Source: Eledone cirrhosa
Taxonomy: Eukaryota
Direction: 5' to 3'
NCBI GenBank assembly: GCA_964016885.1
Contig: OZ024742.1
Coordinates: 256,742,001-256,806,000, forward strand
Length of the DNA: 64,000 nucleotides
Positions 13,875 through 62,645 of this stretch are shown here, one piece after another. The position numbers and the translations under genes were made by a program. Below the pieces are notes generated by a model, which saw only the letters and a list, made by a program, of their open reading frames with translations, was not told the DNA's origin and made no database searches. How positions within the stretch are numbered: the first letter of the stretch is position 1; each line of letters begins with the position of its first letter.

Positions 13875-14055
13875 TTTGGCACAAGGCCAGCAATTATCCC
13901 AGTGTATTATTGGTACTTTATTTTATCGACCTTGTAATGATGAAAGGCAAAGTTAACCTCGGCGAGATTTAAAATCTGAAGGTAAAATGCCGCAACTTTC
14001 TGCTGCAACGCTTGGCGTCAGACCTTCTACAGATACTGGCAATCCACCGCCCTTG
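13875..14055 (-). mobile_element. Octopus-type SINE remnant; related decayed copies near 29330, 29735, 31225, 32725, 55465
   Basis: ggtactttattttatcgacc..gatgaaaggcaaagttaacctcggcg; reverse complements (gttcaaat..ctttgtctttc..gataaaataaagta) recur; recognised from memory. Confidence 0.55.
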
Positions 14056-14654: not shown

Positions 14655-14775
<121 letters not shown>

Positions 14776-17700
14776 AGAAATTGGAATAAATGCTCTGAAA
14801 TAGCGATATATATGTGAATTTAGACATAGAATATTCGAAAATATTCTGTATGTTTATAATAAACATTTTGAAGACCTAATCGCTATAGAATAGAATACGT
14901 CACGTATTACAATTAGATTCTCGATAAAAGCAAGGGAAGTAATCTACGCGTTTCATTCTTGTTAGAAATCTTCAGGACTACATATCCAGTGCTTTTATCG
15001 AGAATGACACAGCTAGAGACTTATAGAATACTTAGCTGTGTACAGGAACTGGTTTGAAAGAGCGGTTGCCGGTCCGGCAGAAATTAGAAATTGGAATAAA
15101 TGCTCTGAAATAGCGATATATATGTGAATATAGACATAGAATATTCGAAAATATTCTGTATGTTTATAATAAACATTTTGAAGACCTAATCGCTATAGAA
15201 TAGAATACGTCACGTATTACAATTAGATTCTCGATAAAAGCAAGGGAAGTAATCTACGCGTTTCATTCTTGTTAGAAATCTTCAGGACTACATATCCAGT
15301 GCTTTTATCGAGAATGACACAGCTAGAGACTTATAGAATACTTAGCTGTGTACAGGAACTGGTTTGAAAGAGCGGTTGCCGGTCCGGCAGAAATTAGAAA
15401 TTGGAATAAATGCTCTGAAATAGCGATATATATGTGAATATAGACATAGAATATTCGAAAATATTCTGTATGTTTATAATAAACATTTTGAAGACCTAAT
15501 CGCTATAGAATAGAATACGTCACGTATTACAATTAGATTCTCGATAAAAGCAAGGGAAGTAATCTACGCGTTTCATTCTTGTTAGAAATCTTCAGGACTA
15601 CATATCCAGTGCTTTTATCGAGAATGACACAGCTAGAGACTTATAGAATACTTAGCTGTGTACAGGAACTGGTTTGAAAGAGCGGTTGCCGGTCCGGCAG
15701 AAATTAGAAATTGGAATAAATGCTCTGAAATAGCGATATATATGTGAATATAGACATAGAATATTCGAAAATATTCTGTATGTTTATAATAAACATTTTG
15801 AAGACCTAATCGCTATAGAATAGAATACGTCACGTATTACAATTAGATTCTCGATAAAAGCAAGGGAAGTAATCTACGCGTTTCATTCTTGTTAGAAATC
15901 TTCAGGACTACATATCCAGTGCTTTTATCGAGAATGACACAGCTAGAGACTTATAGAATACTTAGCTGTGTACAGGAACTGGTTTGAAAGAGCGGTTGCC
16001 GGTCCGGCAGAAATTAGAAATTGGAATAAATGCTCTGAAATAGCGATATATATGTGAATATAGACATAGAATATTCGAAAATATTCTGTATGTTTATAAT
16101 AAACATTTTGAAGACCTAATCGCTATAGAATAGAATACGTCACGTATTACAATTAGATTCTCGATAAAAGCAAGGGAAGTAATCTACGCGTTTCATTCTT
16201 GTTAGAAATCTTCAGGACTACATATCCAGTGCTTTTATCGAGAATGGCACAGCTAGAGACTTATAGAATACTTAGCTGTGTACAGGAACTGGTTTGAAAG
16301 AGCGGTTGCCGGTCCGGCAGAAATTAGAAATTGGAATAAATGGTCTGAAATAGCGATATATATGTGAATATAGACATAGAATATTCGAAAATATTCTGTA
16401 TGTTTATAATAAACATTTTGAAGACCTAATCGCTATAGAATAGAATACGTCACGTATTACAATTAGATTCTCGATAAAAGCAAGGGAAGTAATCTACGCG
16501 TTTCATTCTTGTTAGAAATCTTCAGGACTACATATCCAGTGCTTTTATCGAGAATGACACAGCTAGAGACTTATAGAATACTTAGCTGTGTACAGGAACT
16601 GGTTTGAAAGAGCGGTTGCCGGTCCGGCAGAAATTAGAAATTGGAATAAATGCTCTGAAATAGCGATATATATGTGAATATAGACATAGAATATTCGAAA
16701 ATATTCTGTATGTTTATAATAAACATTTTGAAGACCTAATCGCTATAGAATAGAATACGTCACGTATTACAATTAGATTCTCGATAAAAGCAAGGGAAGT
16801 AATCTACGCGTTTCATTCTTGTTAGAAATCTTCAGGACTACATATCCAGTGCTTTTATCGAGAATGACACAGCTAGAGACTTATAGAATACTTAGCTGTG
16901 TACAGGAACTGGAATTTCTGCCGGACCGGCAACCGCTCTTTCAAACCAGTTCCTGTACACAGCTAAGTATTCTATAAGTCTCTAGCTGTGTCATTCTCGA
17001 TAAAAGCACTGGATATGTAGTCCTGAAGATTTCTAACAAGAATGAAACGCGTAGATTACTTCCCTTGCTTTTATCGAGAATCTAATTGTAATACGTGACG
17101 TATTCTATTCTATAGCGATTAGGTCTTCAAAATGTTTATTATAAACATACAGAATATTTTCGAATATTCTATGTCTATATTCACATATATATCGCTATTT
17201 CAGAGCATTTATTCCAATTTCTAATTTCTGCCGGACCGGCAACCGCTCTTTCAAACCAGTTCCTGTACACAGCTAAGTATTCTATAAGTCTCTAGCTGTG
17301 TCATTCTCGATAAAAGCACTGGATATGTAGTCCTGAAGATTTCTAACAAGAATGAAACGCGTAGATTACTTCCCTTGCTTTTATCGAGAATCTAATTGTA
17401 ATACGTGACGTATTCTATTCTATAGCGATTAGGTCTTCAAAATGTTTATTATAAACATACAGAATATTTTCGAATATTCTATGTCTATATTCACATATAT
17501 ATCGCTATTTCAGAGCATTTATTCCAATTTCTAATTTCTGCCGGACCGGCAACCGCTCTTTCAAACCAGTTCCTGTACACAGCTAAGTATTCTATAAGTC
17601 TCTAGCTGTGTCATTCTCGATAAAAGCACTGGATATGTAGTCCTGAAGATTTCTAACAAGAATGAAACGCGTAGATTACTTCCCTTGCTTTTATCGAGAA

Positions 17701-17799
17701 TCTAATTGTAATACGTGACGTATTCTATTCTATAGCGATTAGGTCTTCAAAATGTTTACTATAAACATACAGAATATTTTCGAATATTCTATGTCTATA

Positions 17800-17803
<4 letters not shown>
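14776..17803. repeat. 310-bp tandem array (about 6.9 units plus about 2.9 inverted units), one HHR per unit: candidate non-LTR retrozyme
   Basis: Unit starts at 14776, 15086, 15396, 15706, 16016, 16326, 16636; inversion at 16912/16913; (AT)n on both sides. Confidence 0.95.
17017..17059 (+). ncRNA. Minimal type I HHR of the 310-bp unit (also 17327, 17637 on +; 14939-14981 + n*310 on -)
   Basis: gtagtc-CTGAAGA-tttct aaca agaat-GAAAC-gc-GTA-gattac; palindromic stem III ACGCGT. Confidence 0.9.
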
Positions 17804-17894
<91 letters not shown>

Positions 17895-17906
17895 GTACAT
17901 ATGTAC

Positions 17907-17937
<31 letters not shown>

Positions 17938-17940
17938 TAT

Positions 17941-20060
17941 AAAGAATGAATAATAACAGGTACTCATCATAAAAAGGTAATTTATTCCGTGTGCTTACAA
18001 ATGATTCCACGGTGGTACTACAGCCTATTTATGCTATGTGCAAATTTACAACTATTTGCAGAGCTCAAATATCCAATGCTGTGACCACTGTATCCTCAGA
18101 GTAGAATGGTTAAAATGTACAATGTAAATACCCTTAAGTGGGGTGGTTTGAGAAGATAGAGTAGAAAGGGAAGAGAGAAAAGTAGGGGAGAGGGAGAGAG
18201 AGAAAGATATGCAGGTGTTGGAGAAATAGGAGAGAGTGGTTTGTAGATATCTTAATCAAAATGTTATGGTAGGGGTTTTATTATACTGGTTACTTTTGAA
18301 GAGATGCGTTGATAGTTAAGGTCGGAATTATTTATTTCCCCTGAGGGCAGGTTCATAGATGTGGAGAGGGAGGGAGGTAGGCCAAAGGCGAGAGAGAGAG
18401 TGTAATGGATGTAGAGAGAGAGACATAGAGAGGGGACAGACGAAGTCGATGTGGTGAGTGAACTTTGGGTTCGTAGCAATAATCTGCGAATTGCACTGAG
18501 ATACCATTTATAGTGATAAGCAGTGTATTGTCTTCTAGTGTGGGGGAAGAAAAGGTGGTTAGCTAGAGAGCGATGTTATAGTTACGGGTTCGAATGTTAA
18601 GTTATATTATAGTGAGAGAACTTCGCTTTTAATTTGTCGTTGCAGTATAATTATCGTGCAGTGGAGTATGATAGTCTAATAGTTTTAGAGTTCAGAATTT
18701 TGCTGTATTTATGGAAACTAGGGAAATGTTTGTTTATTAACTTAAAGAATGAAAGAGATAGACTATCATACTCCACGGCACCAAACCTTGAAGCATACAT
18801 AAAAAAACTCAACTTAAAGCAATTAAACAACACTACAAAACAAAATATTTTAGTAACAGGAGGGCAGAACGTAATATCTTCCTCCCAACCACTAAATGGG
18901 AGACGGGTATTATACAATCCACCTGTACTGCTATCACAACCTATCAATGGTATACTCGCTACCCACAACGTAGAATGTAACTGCCATCTACCTGAAAGAT
19001 GTCCATTGAAGAATGAATGCCTAAAATCCAACATTGTTTACCAATGTACGGTTGAATCGAACGACCAGAAATGGTATTATATCGGACTACCACCACCTCT
19101 TTTAAATCTCGCTGGTACCGTCATCGATTCTCAATTAAACATCCTAATCACCATTTTGTGACCACGCTCGCCAACAAGACCTGGCAACTCGGTGAACGCA
19201 ACCAACAGATCACCTTAAAATGGGATATACTTTCCAGCGCAACTGCATATCGGAGTGGATTGGAGTACTGTAGGTTATGTAACCTTGAACTCTTTTACAT
19301 ATTAAAATCCAAAATCAAACTACTTAACGATAGAATTGAACGATCATTATACTGCAACCACAAACTAAAAGCTAAACTCTCTCACTATAAAATAACTTAA
19401 CATTCGAACACGTAACTATAACATCGCTCTCTAGTTAACCACCTTTTCTTCCCCCACAGTACAAGGCAATACACTGCTTATCACTATAAATAGTAACTCA
19501 GTGCAATTCGCAGATTACTACTACGAACCCAAAGTTCACTCACCACATATACTTCGTCTGTCCCCTCTCTATCTCTCTCTCTCTACATCCATTACACTCT
19601 CTCTCTCTCGCCTTTGTCCTACCCCCCTCCCTCTCCACATCTGTAAACCTGCCCTCTGGGGCAATAAATAATTCCGACCATAACTATCAACGCATCTTTC
19701 CAAAAGGAACCGGTATAATAAAACCCCTACCATAACATTTTGATTAAGATATCTACAAACCACTCTCTCCTATTTCTCCAACCCCTGCATATCTTTCTCT
19801 CTCTCTCCCTCTCCCCTACTTTTCTCTCTACTTTTCTACTCTATCTTCTCCAACAACCCCACTTAAGGGTATTTACATTGTACAGTTTAACCATTCTACT
19901 CTGAGGATACAGTGGTCACAGCATTGGATATTTGAGATCTGCAAATAGTTGTAAATTTGCACATAGCATAACTAGGCTGTAGTACCACCGTGGAAACATT
20001 TGTAAGCACACGGAATAAATTACCTTTTTATGATGTCTACCTGTTATTATTCATTCTTTA
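17941..20060 (+). mobile_element. 5'-truncated Naiad-like PLE: GIY-YIG fragment (about 18760-19400, frameshifted), 3' pLTR, and inverted pLTR copy (17941-18690)
   Basis: CNCHLPERCPLKNEC, IVYQC..YYIG, FKSRWYRH, CRLCNLE, CNH; long inverted repeat. Confidence 0.85.
19896..20009 (+). ncRNA. HHR with extended stem II in PLE pLTR
   Basis: CTGAGGA-tacagtggt...accaccgtg-GAAAC-attt-GTA-agcac; stem I weak; the inverted copy has GAATC. Confidence 0.55.
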
Positions 20061-21022
20061 TAAACACTCCGTAATACAGAAGGATCAGGAATTAAGTTTC
20101 TTCAACAATTCTTCCATAACTCGTAGAGTAACCTCTCACCGAACGTCAACCATATCCAGTGTAGTAATTAACCATTACTACATCTAGGATAATCCTATAC
20201 CTAAATATATATATATATATATATGTATTTATTAAAATAACAGATTAAAGTTTAAGCAAAGAATCGCTGCTTTCACCCTTAACGGGATCTTCTGAAACTA
20301 ACAAAGTCAATCTGTAAACGCACAAGTGGATATTTAAAAAAACGTTGCAACCGGAGGAAGACAGGTAGACGATACTTTGGTTCGTGGAAACGCTCCCTGG
20401 CAAATAACGGGAAAAAACGAATATAATACGTCATTAATAGGAGCGGTGAAAAACAATTACGCGCAAAGACAGAACCACGTTTATGCTATAAAAGAGGTCG
20501 TAGACTAATGTTCCCTTAGGTGGTTTATAGAGACGTTCTCTGGCAATGAAACGAAGATAATATGTCATATGTGGAGCGTGGAGAACAATTGCACGCAAAG
20601 ATAAACCACGTAAATTGTACAGCAGAAGTCGTAGTCTAAAATTCTAACTAGGAGACCGAATGAATCTCCGCTTCAGAGTTAAGAACAAAGTAAATAAATA
20701 CGATACAGAGGTAATAGAAATTAAATAAATACATGCACGCATACAAATATGTACATACACAAGCATACACGAAAACACTTACCATAGGTATACAAAACCA
20801 CGCACATATAAATATGTGTGTTTGTGTGTGCGTGTATACAAATAAATAAATAATTAAATAAACGTATATAAATAAATAAATACATATATAACAAGCGTAC
20901 GCACATATCTACATGTAAATATATATATATATATATATATTCATATGTATATATATATATATATATATATATTCATATGTATATATATATATATATATAT
21001 TCATATGTATATATATATATTC

Positions 21023-23406: not shown

Positions 23407-23470
23407 TGAGTTGAGATGGAGGGTCTGTGGTTTTTATATACATATGTATTTATATATATATATATATATA

Positions 23471-25358
23471 TAAACGGAAAAAATGAAACGATATTTCATT
23501 TCCCACACTTAGTACGGCTGTTACTTAAATATAATTATGTACACGTACATACATATATGTATACCGACGTACAGTAGTATGTATATATATATATATATAC
23601 ATACATGCACACATATATATATGCCCGTATGGATTCACCGAACATTTATTATAATGCTCGGTGTGTTTGTAAACAAACATACCGTATTAAGCCGTAGTGT
23701 CTAGCAACCACCGTTGCTCGTTTGTTCAACACTGACAAAGGAACGCTGTACTAGTTTCAAGCTTGTTAGCTATCGTCAGCAACGTATACCTTCCTGCCAG
23801 ATTGTTGAACGTATATACTTACCTTATGCATATTAACGGCTGAGTAGCCCAATTTGCATATCGAGTGGGTTAATCGGCCGGGTGCACCGAAAACGATAAA
23901 CGGAAAAAATGAAACGATATTTCATTTCCCACTCTTACTACGGCTGTTACTTAAATATAAGTATGTACACGTACATACATATATGTATACCGACGTACAG
24001 TAGTATGTATATATATATATATATACATACATGCACACATATATATATGCCCGTATGGATTCACCGAACATTTATTATAATGCTCGGTGTGTTTGTAAAC
24101 AAACATACCGTATTAAGCCGTAGTGTCTAGCAACCACCGTTGCTCGTTTGTTCAACACTGACAAAGGAACGCTGTACTAGTTTCAAGCTTGTTAGCTATC
24201 GTCAGCAACGTATACCTTCCTGCCAGATTGTTGAACGTATATACTTACCTTATGCATATTAACGGCTGAGTAGCCCAATTTGCATATCGAGTGGGTTAAT
24301 CGGCCGGGTGCACCGAAAACGATAAACGGAAAAAAATGAAACGATATTTCATTTCCCACTGTTAGTACGGCTGTTACTTAAATATAAGTATGTACATGTA
24401 CATACATATATGTATACCGACGTACAGTAGTATGTATATATATATATACATACATGCACACATATATATATGCACGTATGGATTCACCGAACATTTATTA
24501 TAATGCTCGGTGTGTTTGTAAACAAACATCCCGTATTAAGCCATAGTGTCTAGCAACCACCGTTGCTCGTTTGTTCAACACTGACAAAGGAACGCTGTAC
24601 TAGTTTCAAGCTTGTTAGCTATCGTCAGCAACGTATACCTTCCTGCCAGATTGTTGAACGTATATACTTACCTCATGCATATTAACGGCTGAGTAGCCCA
24701 ATTTGCATATCGAGTGGGTTAATCGGCCGGGTGCACCGAAAACGATAAACGGAAAAAATGAAACGATATTTCATTTCCCACTCTTAGTACGGCTGTTACT
24801 TAAATATAAGTATGTACACGTACATACATATATGTATACCGACGTACAGTAGTATGTATATATATATATACATACATGCACACATATATATATGCACGTA
24901 TGGATTCACCGAACATTTATTATAATGCTCGGTGTGTTTGTAAATATCGTTTCATTTTTTCCGTTTATCGTTTTCGGTGCACCCGGCCGATTAACCGGCA
25001 CTTACTTAAATGTAAGTATGTGTGTATACGTACATACATATATGTATACAGTCGTACAGTAGCATGCATATATATATATATATATATACATACAGGTACA
25101 CATACATATATGCACGTATCAGTTTAGCAGACGCTTATTATAACGCCGCTTTGTTCGTTTGTAAACAAACTGAACAGCCTGAATTTTTATGCCGTACGGT
25201 GCTAAGGCAACCACGTCACCTTTTTGTTCAACACTGACACAGGAACGATGTACTAGTTTGAAGCTTGTTAGCTATCATCAGCACCGTATACCCATCTGCC
25301 AGATAGTTGAACGTTCGAAAGTATATAGCTCACTCAATATGCAAATTATGTGTACCTG

Positions 25359-25436
<78 letters not shown>

Positions 25437-25545
25437 TGCTACTGTACGTCTGTATACATATATGTATGTACGTATACACACATACTTACATTTAAGTAAG
25501 TGCCGTATAAGAGTGAGAAATGAAATTTCGTTTTCATTTTTTTTT
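23471..25545 (-). repeat. About 425-bp tandem array (about 3.5 units), short inversion, then a diverged subfamily copy; one HHR per unit
   Basis: aaacggaaaaaatgaaacgatat at about 23472, 23898, 24325, 24748; inversion at about 24944-24995; diverged copy 24996-25340 and inverted 25435-25545. Confidence 0.9.
23744..23784 (-). ncRNA. Minimal type I HHR of the 425-bp unit (also 24170, 24593; mutated copy near 25245)
   Basis: cgttg-CTGACGA-tagct aaca agctt-GAAAC-ta-GTA-cagcg; palindromic stem III ACTAGT. Confidence 0.9.
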
Positions 25546-55951: not shown

Positions 55952-56249
55952 ACATGAGAAGAAAGAAGAATACTGCGTGGTTTGTACATGGGTTACATAT
56001 GATAAAAATAGTCATTCGTCAGTGATTTTACAACCATCATTGGTATTTCATCGCATATGTGTGTGTGTGTGTGTGTCTGTGTGTGTGTGTGCATGCGCGC
56101 GCGCGTGTGTATATGTCTGTATGTGTGTGTGTGTGTGTTGGGATGGGTGTGTGTGTGTATGTGTGTGTGATATAATAAATACGGAGACCAAAATCAGGAA
56201 TTCCTCTAATAGGCTGAATGGAGAATTTTTTGCTGAAACTTAAATCTGT

Positions 56250-56300
<51 letters not shown>

Positions 56301-58116
56301 TTTTCAGGGTGACTCTTTATCACCGCTTTTACTCTGCATCGCACTTATACCATTAAGTAAAATGCTCAATGAAACAAAACATGGATATAGAGTCTATGAC
56401 AAAACCATTAATCACCTGTTCTACATGGATGACCTGAAACTATTTGCAAAAAATGATGAACAATTGCAAGGGCTATTATCCACTGTGAAGCAGTTCAGTG
56501 ATGACATTAAAATGGAGTTTGGACTGGATAAATGCGCCAAAGCAACGTTCACCAGAGGAAAGCTGCTGAAGAGTTCAGACATTAATCTTGATCGGAGGAA
56601 CGTGATAAGAGAGCTTGATCAAGAACAAACTTACAAATATCTAGGTGTTTGTGAAGGAGACGGAATCAAGCACTCGACAATGAGGGAAAGGATAAGGAAG
56701 GAATGTTACCGCAGAGTCAGAGCAATCTTAAGAACGGAATTGAATGCAAGGAATAGGATCGATGCCATAAACACGCTTGCCATACCAGTAGTAACCTACA
56801 GTTACAATGTCATCAACTGGTCAAGCACAGAGATCCGTAGGCTCGATACAAAAATCCGAAAATTCTTAACCATGCACAGAATGCATCACCCTAAGGCAGA
56901 CATAGATAGAATATATCTCCCTAGGAAAGAAGGAGGACGTGGGTTAATCCAGTTAGACATTGCGTTGAAAACTGCAACAATTGGATTATCCACATATCTA
57001 AGGGAATCACATGATTGGATGATCAAACTCGTTTTGAAACACGAAAGCACCAAAAGATCATATTCCATTACAAAAGATGCACAAAGATACAGTAATGGAC
57101 TACAAATTTCAGAAGTCCCATTTACTGCTGAAATGGAAAACACAGAAAAAGCAAAGCAGGTAAAAGTAACTGCAAAGAAAGAACTGCTACAGAAACTGGC
57201 TAAGAAATGGCAAGAAAAGCCTCTGTATGGAAAATACCCAGAGCGAGCTAACAATCCTGATGTTGACAAAACTTTAACCCATCAGTGGTTGGCATCCTCT
57301 GGACTGAAATCGGAGACTGAAGGACTGATTATATCCGCACAAGATCAGTGTCTGCCAACAAAAAATTACCAAGCCAACATAATAAAAAATGGGTGCAGCC
57401 CATTATGCCGTGTATGCAAAAAACAACCAGAGACCATTGACCATATAATTTCAATGTGCAGTCCTATAGCTCCAACCGAATACCTAAACAGGCATGACAG
57501 AGCTGCACAATACATACATTGGATAATGTGTAAGCATTTTGACCTGCCCCATCAAAAGAATTGGTGGGAGCATCAACCACCTCCCATACTTGAAAAAGAT
57601 CACATCTCAATCTTGTGGAACTTTAGCATCCAAACAGACCGAAAAATAGATGCAAATAGACCTGATATAATATTGAAGGACTTCAAAAAGAGGGTATGCC
57701 TGCTAATTGATATGTCTGTTCCCTATAGACAAGAATGTATCTATAAAAACATTTGAAAAATTGAGCAAGTATAAGGACCTGGAGATAGAAATTGGAAAAA
57801 TGTGGAAATTGAGAACTAAAACAATACCAGTGGTTGTAGGCGCTCTGGGAATGATACCTAAAGGGTCTAAGGATTACTTATCGCAAATCCCAGGAAACCC
57901 GCGTATAGGAGAAATACAAAAGATAGTACTAATGGGAACTGCCCATATACTAAGGAAGATTCTGTCAATATAAGTACATCACAAGTCTAAACACTAAAGA
58001 TGCATGTGTGAGTATGTATGTTCTTTCTTGAACATGGCGGATCTTGATGTCTCTTGAGGTCACTGGTAGTGACTTGGTGATAATTCGTATGAACATAAAG
58101 CAAGATAAATGCAACT

Positions 58117-58117
<1 letters not shown>
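56301..58117 (+). mobile_element. R4/Dong-like non-LTR retrotransposon, 5'-truncated, inserted in (TAA)n
   Basis: FQGDSLSP, HLFYMDDLK, GGRGL, CRVC..ETIDHIISMC, RHD, RPDII..IDMSVP, KYKDL (restriction-like endonuclease); frameshift near 57722. Confidence 0.9.
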
Positions 58118-58171
<54 letters not shown>

Positions 58172-58174
58172 TAA

Positions 58175-59430
58175 AAAATTCTTAACCATGCACAGAATGC
58201 ATCACCCTAAGGCAGATATAGTTAGAATATATCTCCCTAGAAAGGAAGGAGGACGTGGGTTAATCCAGTTAGACATTGCGTTGAAAACTGCAACAATTGG
58301 ATTATCTACATATCTAAGGGAATCACATGATTGGATGATCAAACTCGTTTTGAAACACGAAAGCATCAAAAGATCATATTCCATTACAAAAGATGCACAA
58401 AGATACAGTAATGGACTACACATTTCAGAAGTCCCATTTACTGCTGAAATGGAAAACGCAGAAAAAGCAAAGCAGGTAAAAGTAACTGCAAAGAAAGAAC
58501 TGCTACAGAAACTGGCTAAGAAATGGCAAGAAAAGCCTCTGTATGGAAAATACCCAGAAAGAGCTAACAATCCTGATGTTGACAAAACTTTAACCCATCA
58601 GTGGTTGGCATCCTCTGGACTGAAATCGGAGACTGAAGGACTGATTATATCAGCACAAGATCAGTGTCTGCCAACAAAAAATTACCAACCCAACATAATA
58701 AAAAATGGATGCAGCCCATTATGCGTGTATGCAAAAAACAACCAGAGACCATTGAACATATAATTTCAATGTGCAGTCCTATAGCTCCAACCGAATACCT
58801 AAACAGGCATGACAGAGCTGCACAATACATACATTGGATAATGTGTAAGCATTTTGACCTACCCCATCAAAGAATTGGTGGGAGCATCAACCACCTCACA
58901 TACTTGAAGAAGATCACATCTCAATCTTGTGGAAATTTAGCATCCAAACAGACCGAAAAATAGATGCAAAAAGACCTAATATAATATTGAAGGACTTTAA
59001 AAAGAGGGTATGCCTGCTAATTGATATGTCTGTTCCAATAGACAAGAATGTATCTATAAAAACATTTGAAAAATTGAGCAAGTATAGGGACCTGGAGATA
59101 GAAATTGGAAAAATGTGGAAATTGAGAACTAAAACAATACCAGTGGTTGTAGGCGCTCTGGGAATGATACCTAAGGGGTCTAATGATTATTTATCGCAAA
59201 TCCCAGGAAACCCGCGTATAGGAAAAATACAAAAGATAGTACTAATGGGAACTGCCCATATACTAAGGAAGATTATGTCAATATAAGTACATCACAAGTC
59301 TAAACACTAAAGATGCATGTGTGAGTATGTATGTTCTTTCTTGAACATGGCGGACCTTGTTGTCTCTTGAGGTCACTGGTTGTGACTTGGTGATAACTCG
59401 TATGAACATAAAGCAAGATAAATGCAACTG
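58175..59430 (+). mobile_element. Second, shorter R4/Dong-like copy in tandem
   Basis: Highly similar to about 56860-58117; own frameshifts; bounded by (TAA)n. Confidence 0.9.
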
Positions 59431-59446
59431 TAATAATAATAATAAT

Positions 59447-62400
59447 GTTTTCTTTATTAACCACAAGGGTTTATATAAAGTAGACATTAAGGACAGTACA
59501 GGACAATGCAGGACGGTACAAATGGGCATTTCTGCGTGTAAAAAAAACAGAGGTTGTAATAAAATAACAAAGAAAAATTCCCCAATAGGGGGGAGACTTC
59601 CGAGGGACATTTGTGGAGAAAGCCCATTAAAAGACCACAGTGACCCTGACCACCAGGGCAAGTGCCCTCTCCCAGTTTTCCACCTTTAATTTACAGACAC
59701 ATACTCAGAGTAGGCCCATTCACTCGGGCCATACTTGCTTCTTTCACCCATCTTTCAACAAAATGCTGGGAAGAGAGCATTTCCCTCTCTACCCTGATTT
59801 TCCTTTTCAAAAGAATTTGAAAAAGTTAATCAGGGCATCACCGAAGTAGTAAGTGCTCGTCTTCATCCCTTTCAAACGTGTCCACCATACTATCTCTTTC
59901 GTCATGGCTATCAGACAGATAAAAACTGCCTGCCCTTCCCGGCTAAAGGAAGAGGGCGGGGAAATCCTTACAATGGACTCAGCTGATAGCCGGGTCCGCC
60001 CTACACGTGACAGCAGGTGTTCGACATAAACCCACGAGTCAGCACTGCTCGGACAATGGACGAGTGCGTGCTGGACGGTTTCGTCGCCCTGCGCGCATCT
60101 CGGACATGCCCGGCTGACGGCACCTCCATGCCTGTAGAGTTTATCCCGAACTGGCAAAGCTCCCCGGTAGCACTGCCAGGCCAGTGATTTCTGGAAGTTG
60201 TCCATAGGCCCCGGCCCGAAAGTCCGTCCGAAGAGATTGGCTAGTTGATTTTCGTCGACGTCTAGAGTTTCTTCAAGTACGTCATCGCTCTTCCCCTCCA
60301 CTAATCCTCTATAGAACGCCAAGGTGGAGTTTCCACGGATCACATTGCCCGATTGATCGAGGGCTGTGAGAGCCTGAAGACATTCCAGTCTTTAAGCGTT
60401 TCCTCTCGGTCTTCGCTTGACACAGGACTGCAGCTCTGTCAAGGAGACGAGCTGGGGAAAGACGTGTCTAGCATATGGCGACCACACCTGTTCACCGTCG
60501 AGGAAGAGGTGGAGATGTCGTAGCATGAGTGCGTGTCTGCGCATCATCAGCCACGGCATGCCCAGCCCTCCACGTAGCGGGTGTTGACAGCAGATGGACC
60601 TCCTGACCATCGGAGCGCGAGCCTTCCACAAAAAGCGAAAGAGCAAACGCTCCAGCGCAGTTAGGACGGTCTTGGGACAAGGAACGACGGTCAGGCGGTA
60701 GTAGATGACGGACGCGATGTACGCGTTAGCCATCTCCGCTCGACCTTTCAGGGATAGCTTCCTCTCCGCCCCTCTCTGGGTGAGAGAAGCGGATAGCTTC
60801 CTCTCCGCCCCTCTCTGGGTGAGAGAAGCCACCCTGCTCGTCACCTCGTCCCAGTTATTGTCCGTCTGGAGGTCCGGACCGAACCAGACCCCTAGCAATT
60901 TAACGGGTCCGTCCGTCAAGCGCCCGACGACGCTGTTGGACGGCATGGACCTGCCTCTCCAGGTACCGAACTGCAGGCCCACTGACTTTTCCTGGTTGAT
61001 CATTGCTCCTGTCACCGCTTCGTATTCTCTTAGTGTAGTGCCGATCACCTCGATGTGTTTGGCGTTCGACACCACTACGGTGACATCGTCCGCATATGCT
61101 GACATGGATCTTCCGCATCCTAGTTCGCACGGGACCCCACTCAACGTCTCCAGTTTGTGCAGTAATGGCTCGAGAGTCAATACGTACAAGAGGGACGAGA
61201 GGGGACATCCGTGGCGGACCGAGCGCATGATGTTGAACGGTTCCGAAAGGTGACCGTTCACTCTCACCACAGAGCAGATGTCGCTGTGCATGGCAGCGAT
61301 CCACCCTCTGAAGACGGACCCAAATCCAGCCGCCTTCTGGACTGCCGCTAGGTAACGATGGTCGACCCTATCGAAAGCTTTCGACTGATCTAAATTGATC
61401 AAGGACTCACCCGTGCCAGGTTGCCTAGCTACTCTCTCTACAATGTATCGCGTGAGGTGGAGGTTGTCGTGGATGGATCTGTCGGGAATGGCGCATGTCT
61501 GCGCCACTCCCACCAGACCACCAACGACATGCGCCAACCTCTTTGCTAGCACCTTGGCCAAAATCTTGAACTCTGTGTTCAGCAGAGTTATGGGCCTGAA
61601 ATTATCTATGATATCCCCATTGTTCAGATCCTTTCTCAGCAGCGCCACCGCTCCTCGGCTCACAGAGCTGGGAATTCTCCCGTTCTGTTGCCAGTTGCAG
61701 TTGACGTCCGCCCAGAGGCCCCCGAACAAGTCTGGCATTTGTACGTATAGTTCATAGGGTAGACTATCCAAACCAGGCGATTTACCCTTTGTGCGGCCCA
61801 TCATTTCCTCCCGTACTTCAGCGGCTGTTATCGGCTTTTCGCAACACTCCGCCTCAGTGGCCGAGAGCCGCGGAAGTCCGTCGAGGTAATCACTAAAGTC
61901 CATCCCTCGGTCCGGCCCGCCACTGCCCCCGAACAGCTGTGCGAAGTGTCGCTGAAAAGCTTCACACATTTGCCCGGGATCGAGTAGCATGCGCCCGTCG
62001 TGGTCCACTAAATACCGGATCGTGGCTTTGTTGCCACGACGCGCCTCCGCCACTTGGGCCCATTGAACGGCTTTCGTCCCCTCGTGTCTGAGAGCACGCA
62101 CCCCAACTCGGACAACGCAGTCTTCGTGCTTTGTATTGAAGAATTGGTCAAGGGCCAATTTCGCCGCAAGTACGTCGGTAGCGATGCCTTTGCTAAGCGC
62201 CTCGTCTAATTTTCTAACTAATTCTCCCTCTGCTCTATTTTTCTCTGTGGCTACAGCTTTACTAAACCTAATGGACTCTATTCTAATTGCGCTTTTCAGA
62301 GCAAACCACCACTTGTTGTTGACGATGGCCCCCGTCAACGCCTGCTTAACTAGTTCGCTAATCCGGTCTCTGTAGGCCTTGCGCGCTGGTAAGTACGCGT

Positions 62401-62645
62401 TTAGCTTCCAGTAGCCGGGTCCTCGTCAATGAAGCCTATCTAAGTCAAGCACACACATCACGAATTTGTGGTCCGTGTAGCTGACTATATAGAATTGTGG
62501 ACAGCATATGCTAGACCTATCTATTTCCCTACAAAATACTCTATCTAGATATGATCTGGATGACCCTATGCGATTAGTCTAAGTCCACATTGGCACATCC
62601 GGGAAATCCAATCGGTACCTGTCAGACAGTTCAAAACCTGTCAGA
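59447..62645 (-). mobile_element. Tx1/L1-clade LINE ORF2, 5'-truncated and degenerate
   Basis: End of APE domain (SYLDR, TDH), GKSPGLD.LPYELY, FRPITLLN, LDQSKAFDRVDH, GCPLS, AYADD, CPRC..ETVQHALVHC; AATAAA at the 3' end. Confidence 0.9.

Follow-up and report, generated by a model that had tools for sequence, protein, structure and literature searches.

The 3-kb array at positions 14776-17803 of the window, that is, of the whole 64,000-nt stretch of Eledone cirrhosa DNA analysed here, is one of more than 1,000 young insertions of a 310-nt repeat, and it carries a Penelope-type insertion footprint. We consider it probable that the array is a young, single insertion of a retrozyme made by a Penelope-like reverse transcriptase (RT)/endonuclease, with both DNA ends priming on one RNA, which was probably circular. 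The head-to-head layout, the pairing of two kinds of outer end (A and B), the single haplotype per locus and the random, unique junctions are established by direct observation.

Structure of the array in the window

With window positions 16913-17222, read in the ribozyme sense, taken as the reference unit U, the array comprises a total of 9.8 units of 310 nt, arranged as head-to-head arms between two (AT)n runs (Table 1). The preliminary description had matched the outer end of the left arm to the start of the right arm, and this contiguity is exact, the left end ...CCAATTTCT being U310 and the right arm opening at U1. The 7-bp ambiguity that had been allowed at this point (U304-310, U1-7) is resolved by CC before one copy and GCC after the other. 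The right end had been placed at the internal ATATATAT of the unit, and indeed the match is exact up to U271, followed by a C/T mismatch at 17804 and by U273-280, which equal (AT)n. The units of the array differ by only four scattered substitutions, each in a single unit, and the junction is blunt (overlap 0) and occurs once genome-wide. The head-to-head layout in the window is confirmed as real and lies far above chance.

Table 1 Features of the array and its AT-rich target in the window (U, position in the 310-nt reference unit)
Feature	Position in window	Strand	Remark
Left (AT)n target microsatellite	14657-14775		TRF, period 2, 59.5 copies
Left arm, 6.89 units, U34 (junction) to U310 (outer end), 2137 bp	14776-16912	-	Putatively B-primed
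39-nt 'tail', U272-310, site A to site B	14776-14814	-	This end only
Site B outer end, U306-310	14776-14780	-	Main end in the family U306, secondary end U310/311
Head-to-head junction, U34 / U1	16912-16913		Blunt
Right arm, 2.87 units, U1 to U271	16913-17803	+	Putatively A-primed
Site A outer end, U268-280	17800-17812	+	ATATATAT of unit runs into target
Right (AT)n target microsatellite	17804-17941		TRF
Type-I hammerhead motif nearest the junction, left arm	16799-16841	-	Motif and stems read from sequence
Six further left-arm hammerhead motifs	310-bp steps, down to 14939-14981	-	
Type-I hammerhead motif U105-147, right arm	17017-17059	+	Predicted cut after 17053 (U141)
Further right-arm hammerhead motifs	17327-17369; 17637-17679	+	

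Nature of the 310-nt unit

The unit is 310 nt long, has about 35% GC and is repeated in tandem, and its size and low GC content fit the criterion for metazoan non-LTR retrozymes (~170-400 nt). A descriptor of core and three stems found, at U105-147, a 6-bp stem I, CUGAAGA (the CUGANGA pattern), stem II, GAAA and a 2-bp palindromic stem III, a layout equal to that of the metazoan type-I hammerhead. This architecture is described in PMC4209133, in whose account motifs with a short stem III cleave within multimers as dimers and leave monomer circles uncut. Rfam gave no hammerhead match, the window yielding nothing at the gathering threshold and chance-level or AT-driven matches up to E 10, and the hammerhead label is therefore based on the motif and on how it varies. 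The fold of the unit is stronger than that of shuffled sequences (z -5.2). None of 25 array-fixed variants touches the 12 invariant bases of the hammerhead core; in stems I and II, four fixed substitutions keep or restore pairs and two fixed variants each insert 1 nt into stem I, whereas predicted pairs elsewhere in the unit are broken by four fixed substitutions. The array contains no stop-free frame of at least 120 codons, no LTR architecture and no RT or GIY-YIG ORF, so that the element is non-autonomous. Judged from its sequence, the 310-nt repeat is best read as a non-LTR retrozyme with predicted self-cleavage after U141. Metazoan non-LTR retrozymes, as portrayed in PMC7229834 and 10.64898/2026.07.22.740005, likewise consist of non-coding, low-GC tandem units of ~300 nt with a type-I hammerhead.

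Paired outer ends and the Penelope-like footprint

The 3.0-Gb genome contains 15,034 exact hammerhead 3' cores, 1,051 exact U306 ends and 1,262 exact ends at U271/280, together with 75 ends at U310/311, whose AT register is shifted by one base relative to the U306 ends. Sample 1, drawn from 150 of 226 matches listed and biased toward the haplotype of the window, consists of 38 loci (30 two-armed, 7 one-armed and 1 gapped). Sample 2 is the first 60 of the 1,051 B ends (53 two-armed, 3 one-armed, 2 gapped and 2 beyond the retrieved span), and sample 3 the first 40 of the 75 loci with a U310/311 end like that of the window (37 two-armed, 2 one-armed and 1 too long). Every two-armed locus in samples 1-3 is head-to-head.

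Outer ends were scored as site A at U255-282, mostly 271 or 280, and as site B at U300-315, mostly 306; two outer ends of sample 3 were read through a short extra segment. One A end was paired with one B end in 115 of 116 resolved two-armed loci (27/28, 52/52 and 36/36 in samples 1-3), the exception being L033, whose partner end is not A. Neither A+A nor B+B loci were found among the 116, where samples 2 and 3, being chosen by their B end, test B+B alone. The gap from A to B has a family mode of 35 nt (271 versus 306) and measures 39 nt in the window, and the resulting tail is present at one end only. The outer ends adjoin alternating AT, with 164 of 175 matching at least 8 of 10 bases, and the independent runs X1 and X4 likewise contain loose ends of types A and B on (AT)n.

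Penelope-like insertions with an inverted, 5'-truncated copy and a 30-40-bp tail at one end were described by Craig et al. (2021; PMC8557442), and the origin of such inverted, tailed insertions is termed undefined in the pertinent passages of that paper. According to the corresponding parts of Frangieh et al. (2024; PMC11167929), the tail maps to two internal RT start sites, both strands are cut and extended, and a dimer is predicted. The distance between A and B in the retrozyme matches this tail in length. The retrozyme array shares with Penelope-like insertions, as these papers present them, the inverted arm, the tail at one end, the AT-rich or microsatellite target and the two RT start sites; an inverted copy was found in 53/60 and 37/40 of the B-anchored loci. 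In contrast to Penelope-like insertions, the array has no ORF and each of its arms is a multimer of a single small unit, and in the retrozyme family the one-A-one-B rule and the same-template origin can be counted at each locus. Moreover, PAc starts without homology in the account of PMC11167929, whereas site A of the retrozyme pairs with its target.

Junctions between the arms

In all, 111 simple junctions entered the test set; those of the window and of L033 were set aside, as were seven that contain an extra segment (L060, L068, L091, L230, L234, L241 and L258). Recurrent junctions were not found among the 111. The 79 simple junctions of samples 1 and 2 include 55 without insert and 24 with inserts of 1-33 nt, and the insert-free ones have a mean microhomology of 2.3 nt, compared with 0.76 nt by chance. 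The two cDNA ends were presumably united by end-joining.

We regard it as next to inconceivable that the inversion is a fold-back chimera or an assembly artefact. For an artefact speaks that no bridging read and no listed contig from runs X1, X2, X4, X5, X6, X20 and X21 spans 16912/16913, though these runs probably stem from other individuals and so provide no test. Against it, the layout recurs in most loci (30/38, 53/60 and 37/40) with different and unique flanks and with the A+B rule held, and the junctions are not mirror-symmetric, the arms of the window meeting at U34 and U1. Fold-back symmetry was rejected across the family as well, with mirror-like junctions (within 20 nt) in 15/111 compared with 14.7 expected. 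The rule-bound ends and the non-mirror junctions together make an artefact unlikely. In the assembly, the left flank is matched in full once, by the locus itself, and no empty allele is present; both flanks are (AT)n.

Relation to L1 twin priming

The contiguity of U310 and U1 had been taken in the preliminary description as a signature of twin priming of the L1 type, a claim that the other loci do not bear out, since breakpoint relations at the 111 simple junctions are random. In the geometry of the window, the A-arm start equals B-end+1 in 0/110 other junctions (0.35 expected), lies within 5 nt of it in 3/110 (3.9 expected) and within 20 nt in 9/110 (14.6 expected). In the opposite geometry, that of the B-arm start relative to A-end+1, 1 of 108 junctions is exact, 6 lie within 5 nt and 20 within 20 nt (0.35, 3.8 and 14.3 expected). 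Among the two-armed loci of sample 3, which share the extended B end of the window, the partner start lies within 5 nt in 0/37 (1.3 expected). Whether outer-end and junction positions coincide at other arrays had been suggested as a check: the outer ends do fall at the fixed A and B sites, and the junctions are unrelated to the other primer. At about 2/310 per locus, chance alone should produce a few exact contiguities in a family of more than 1,000 loci, and the contiguity in the window is such a coincidence, unfit as evidence for twin priming.

For L1 inversion junctions, the relevant part of 10.1101/2024.08.27.596794 gives deletions with a median of 14.5 bp and duplications with a median of 22 bp. 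L1 junctions thus typically lie ~15-22 bp from the internal primer, and since no such relation is seen here, the L1 signature is absent. B-arm stops at U262-292 are enriched (19/111 versus 11.1 expected, p=0.014), an excess that was noticed post hoc and has the geometry opposite to that of the window; it gives a weak hint that one RT was sometimes blocked at the other primer. The 5' ends of the arrays are slightly non-uniform overall (p=0.02).

L1-type twin priming on one linear multimer, in which the junction would mark where the first cDNA met the internal primer, is accordingly very improbable. The exact U310/U1 contiguity in the window, the pairing of site A with the target and the weak post hoc excess of B-arm stops at U262-292 would suit it. 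However, contiguity is absent family-wide, with no exact case in 110 and with 9/110 and 20/108 within 20 nt against about 14.4 expected, it is absent from the window's own end class (0/37), there is no poly(A), the priming sites are both fixed, and the stop excess has the wrong geometry for the window. As far as twin priming is set out in PMC2837659 and 10.1101/2024.08.27.596794, L1 likewise has two DNA ends on one RNA, an inversion, microhomology at the joint and correlated arm lengths. In L1, by that account, poly(A) serves as first primer and the second is internal and variable, whereas the retrozyme has no poly(A) and two fixed sites; unlike in L1, the retrozyme junction is unrelated to the other primer and the arms overlap across many unit copies. 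That two DNA ends prime on the same RNA is indicated indirectly for the retrozyme by haplotype concordance in 38/40 loci (see below). The preliminary interpretation is partly supported: the retrozyme resembles twin priming in that two DNA ends would copy one RNA, yet the features that would place it with L1 are lacking.

One template per locus

The 40 loci of sample 2 in which both arms are long enough carry at least 19 haplotypes, and the haplotypes of the two arms agree in 38 of them, compared with a permutation mean of 4.2 and a maximum of 12 in 20,000. Variants unique to one locus are present in both arms in 14/14 cases. The haplotype of the window was seen in 1/55 in the unselected sample 2, yet it is carried by all units of the window. 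It is this concordance, and not the contiguity, that supports a single event for the window. Thus, one insertion event with two primers on one RNA sequence, as proposed at the outset, is supported by the haplotypes and the fixed ends, and so is priming at the internal AT run. The accompanying idea that RT copied a multimer or circled about 10 times stands as far as the multimer or the rolling is concerned; instead of a single RT, two cDNAs of about 7 and 3 rounds are indicated. Two haplotypes within one locus were observed at L091 and L119, and in each arm of L119 it is the outer two units that deviate from all the inner ones. A template switch or gene conversion may lie behind these mixed haplotypes.

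Each new variant is fixed in every unit of its locus, which suggests a bottleneck of one unit. Arm lengths fit an exponential distribution (KS p=0.22), 87% of arms exceed one unit (within a span limit of 7.5 kb), the longest arms reach at least 24 units, and arm length on one side of a locus correlates with that on the other (rho 0.40, p=0.004, n=51). In 837 passes through U141/142, among which two overlapping loci are counted twice, there were 7 substitutions compared with 5.3 expected, and indels at U138-146 numbered 0. Had the RT jumped repeatedly on a cut monomer, scars at the ribozyme cut site would be expected, and the absence of such indels counts against this. Nor are 5' ends enriched at the cut site (5/222 versus 5.0 expected). 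Run X2 yielded a closed contig of 310+30 nt and run X6 one of 340 nt, either of which could derive from a circle or from tandem DNA.

A rather unlikely alternative keeps the same two-site, Penelope-type priming and replaces the circle by a linear read-through multimer transcribed from a homogeneous donor, or by two RNAs ('dual priming'). Transcripts of homogeneous donor arrays would yield one haplotype, unprocessed RNA was the main in vitro substrate of a Poseidon element in the experiments of PMC11167929 that bear on this point, and L091 and L119 suggest that template switches occur. On the other hand, the 40 loci carry at least 19 haplotypes, with each haplotype fixed throughout its units, and this requires the one-unit bottleneck; donor junctions recur in 0/111 loci; short-stem-III hammerheads in multimers would be cut as dimers, sparing monomer circles, if the account in PMC4209133 applies; and arms extend to 24 units or more. 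A single, probably circular, template is preferred.

Variation within the arrays bears on a further proposal, that a short inverted insertion was amplified later in place by unequal crossing-over or slippage, as in the 'local amplification' of Li et al. (2026), the model stated in 10.64898/2026.07.22.740005. Several long arrays, for example L053, L081 and L104, contain variants shared by subsets of units, as this model would have it. These variants imply that some long arrays were duplicated internally after insertion or mis-assembled, and owing to such change the present copy number need not equal the number of RT rounds. However, singletons outnumber subset-shared variants by 104 to 17, divergence is ~0.05% and independent of length (rho -0.05), the window carries singletons only, and tandem expansion must begin from more than one unit per arm. 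We therefore consider amplification in place improbable as the origin of the arrays, and favour copying of one template at insertion.

Candidate enzyme partners

The genome contains intact RT-GIY-YIG ORFs in a 784-aa family and a 758-aa family. The 758-aa family (20 loci) has a hammerhead core and stem II that resemble those of the unit, and it forms inverted arms in (AT)n with two end sites separated by 68 nt, one used at 4 and the other at 3 of the 20 loci. It was rejected as partner, as its ends match neither A nor B and only the hammerhead core and a short motif are common to it and the unit. The 758-aa ORF has no Pfam RT match and no solved relative, and its class is assigned from other comparisons. 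The 784-aa family was rejected too, its 30 loci having no hammerhead by pattern and no homology to the unit. An autonomous element with these A/B ends was not found among these two RT-GIY-YIG families.

Both families have relatives in the window. Positions 1-3548 hold a Penelope-like element with a frameshifted minus-strand ORF and a hammerhead at ~2275-2325, the core of which is similar to that of the 310-nt unit. The element also has an inverted pLTR copy, which ends at 3548 in (AT)n, and intact 758-aa copies are present elsewhere in the genome. Positions 6662-8740 carry a 692-aa RT frame whose family has many intact 784-aa RT-GIY-YIG copies. A head-to-head Penelope-like fragment, one arm of which has a longer end, adjoins the right (AT)n of the array at 17942-20202.

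Proposed mechanism and its implications

What we infer for the priming, the circle, the Penelope enzyme and the joining pathway is as follows. A Penelope-like RT/endonuclease would cut the (AT)n run, and both DNA ends would likely prime cDNA on the same RNA, probably a circle. For one end, synthesis would begin at site A (U~271-280), where AT base pairing would help. For the other it would begin at site B (U~306-313); as the pairing there is 1-2 nt, this start is likely set by the protein. Each RT would then roll round the circle to a random stop, after ~2.9 and ~6.9 rounds in the window. Finally, the two cDNA ends were likely end-joined, which would leave the arms head to head and one end with a tail of 35-39 nt.

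More tentatively, and with rather less confidence, Penelope retrotransposition may be two-ended and asymmetric by design, with one dimer, one RNA, both strands cut and two simultaneous cDNAs started at fixed sites; on a ribozyme circle this would amount to double rolling-circle reverse transcription, writing inverted satellite arrays in one step. If so, it would be a third mode of integration besides LINE target-primed reverse transcription and LTR integration, and a route of viroid-like circles into animal genomes.

Elements of this proposal have precedents. Rolling reverse transcription of retrozyme circles into tandem cDNA was proposed by Cervera and de la Pena (2020) in the text of PMC7229834 that concerns mobilisation, and a Penelope partner for retrozymes has been suggested there and in corresponding parts of 10.64898/2026.07.22.740005. 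In the latter, Li, Clavereau and Pollet (2026) tie retrozymes to Penelope pLTRs by phylogeny and, for tandem arrays, favour local amplification. The mobilisation of animal retrozymes is presented as proposed, not demonstrated, in the pertinent sections of PMC7229834 and Li et al. (2026). The head-to-head arms, the fixed paired ends and the evidence for one template are described here; they do not appear in the available text of PMC7229834, where 'inverted' occurs 0 times, or in the main text of Li et al. (2026) as far as it was covered. Paired A/B ends or one-template evidence in retrozymes were not found in the literature within our scope; subscription papers and supplements, including Fig. 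S9 of PMC7229834, Fig. S2 of PMC11167929 and the bioRxiv supplements, lie beyond that scope and may bear on novelty. With more than 1,000 natural products that are nearly identical, the family lets a simple rule be counted (one template, an A end and a B end per locus), and its 310-nt unit, on which both start sites are mapped, would be a suitable substrate for an in vitro test.

Related and neighbouring sequences

A sister family (L064:8350-9260; also L146, L106, L043 and L047) has ~74% identity to U210-43, which includes the hairpin and sites A and B, and differs in the sequence of the ribozyme region; it is also two-armed in (AT)n. Conservation of U210-43 suggests a putative conserved module for protein recognition. 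In the window, positions 23470-25500 contain a second retrozyme-like family in (AT)n, with 3.5 copies of a 426-nt unit, a minus-strand type-I hammerhead motif and a short inverted cap (~55 nt) at 24945, followed by a diverged copy. About a dozen further families with type-I hammerhead motifs, many as inverted pairs, were seen in ~1 Mb of flanks (loci L031-L157 and the window).

At least 65% of the words of window positions 16636-16945 are present in twenty runs (X1-X20) with 17 organism codes. A near-identical unit occurs in runs of organisms A, B and D, in B and D as one 340-nt contig; close relatives, contamination and horizontal spread are candidate readings of the unit in the runs of other organisms. 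Elsewhere in the window, positions 13910-14000 resemble the tail of cephalopod SINEs, and positions 56218-59286 and 59807-62425 carry LINE-type RT frames with Pfam RVT_1 matches.
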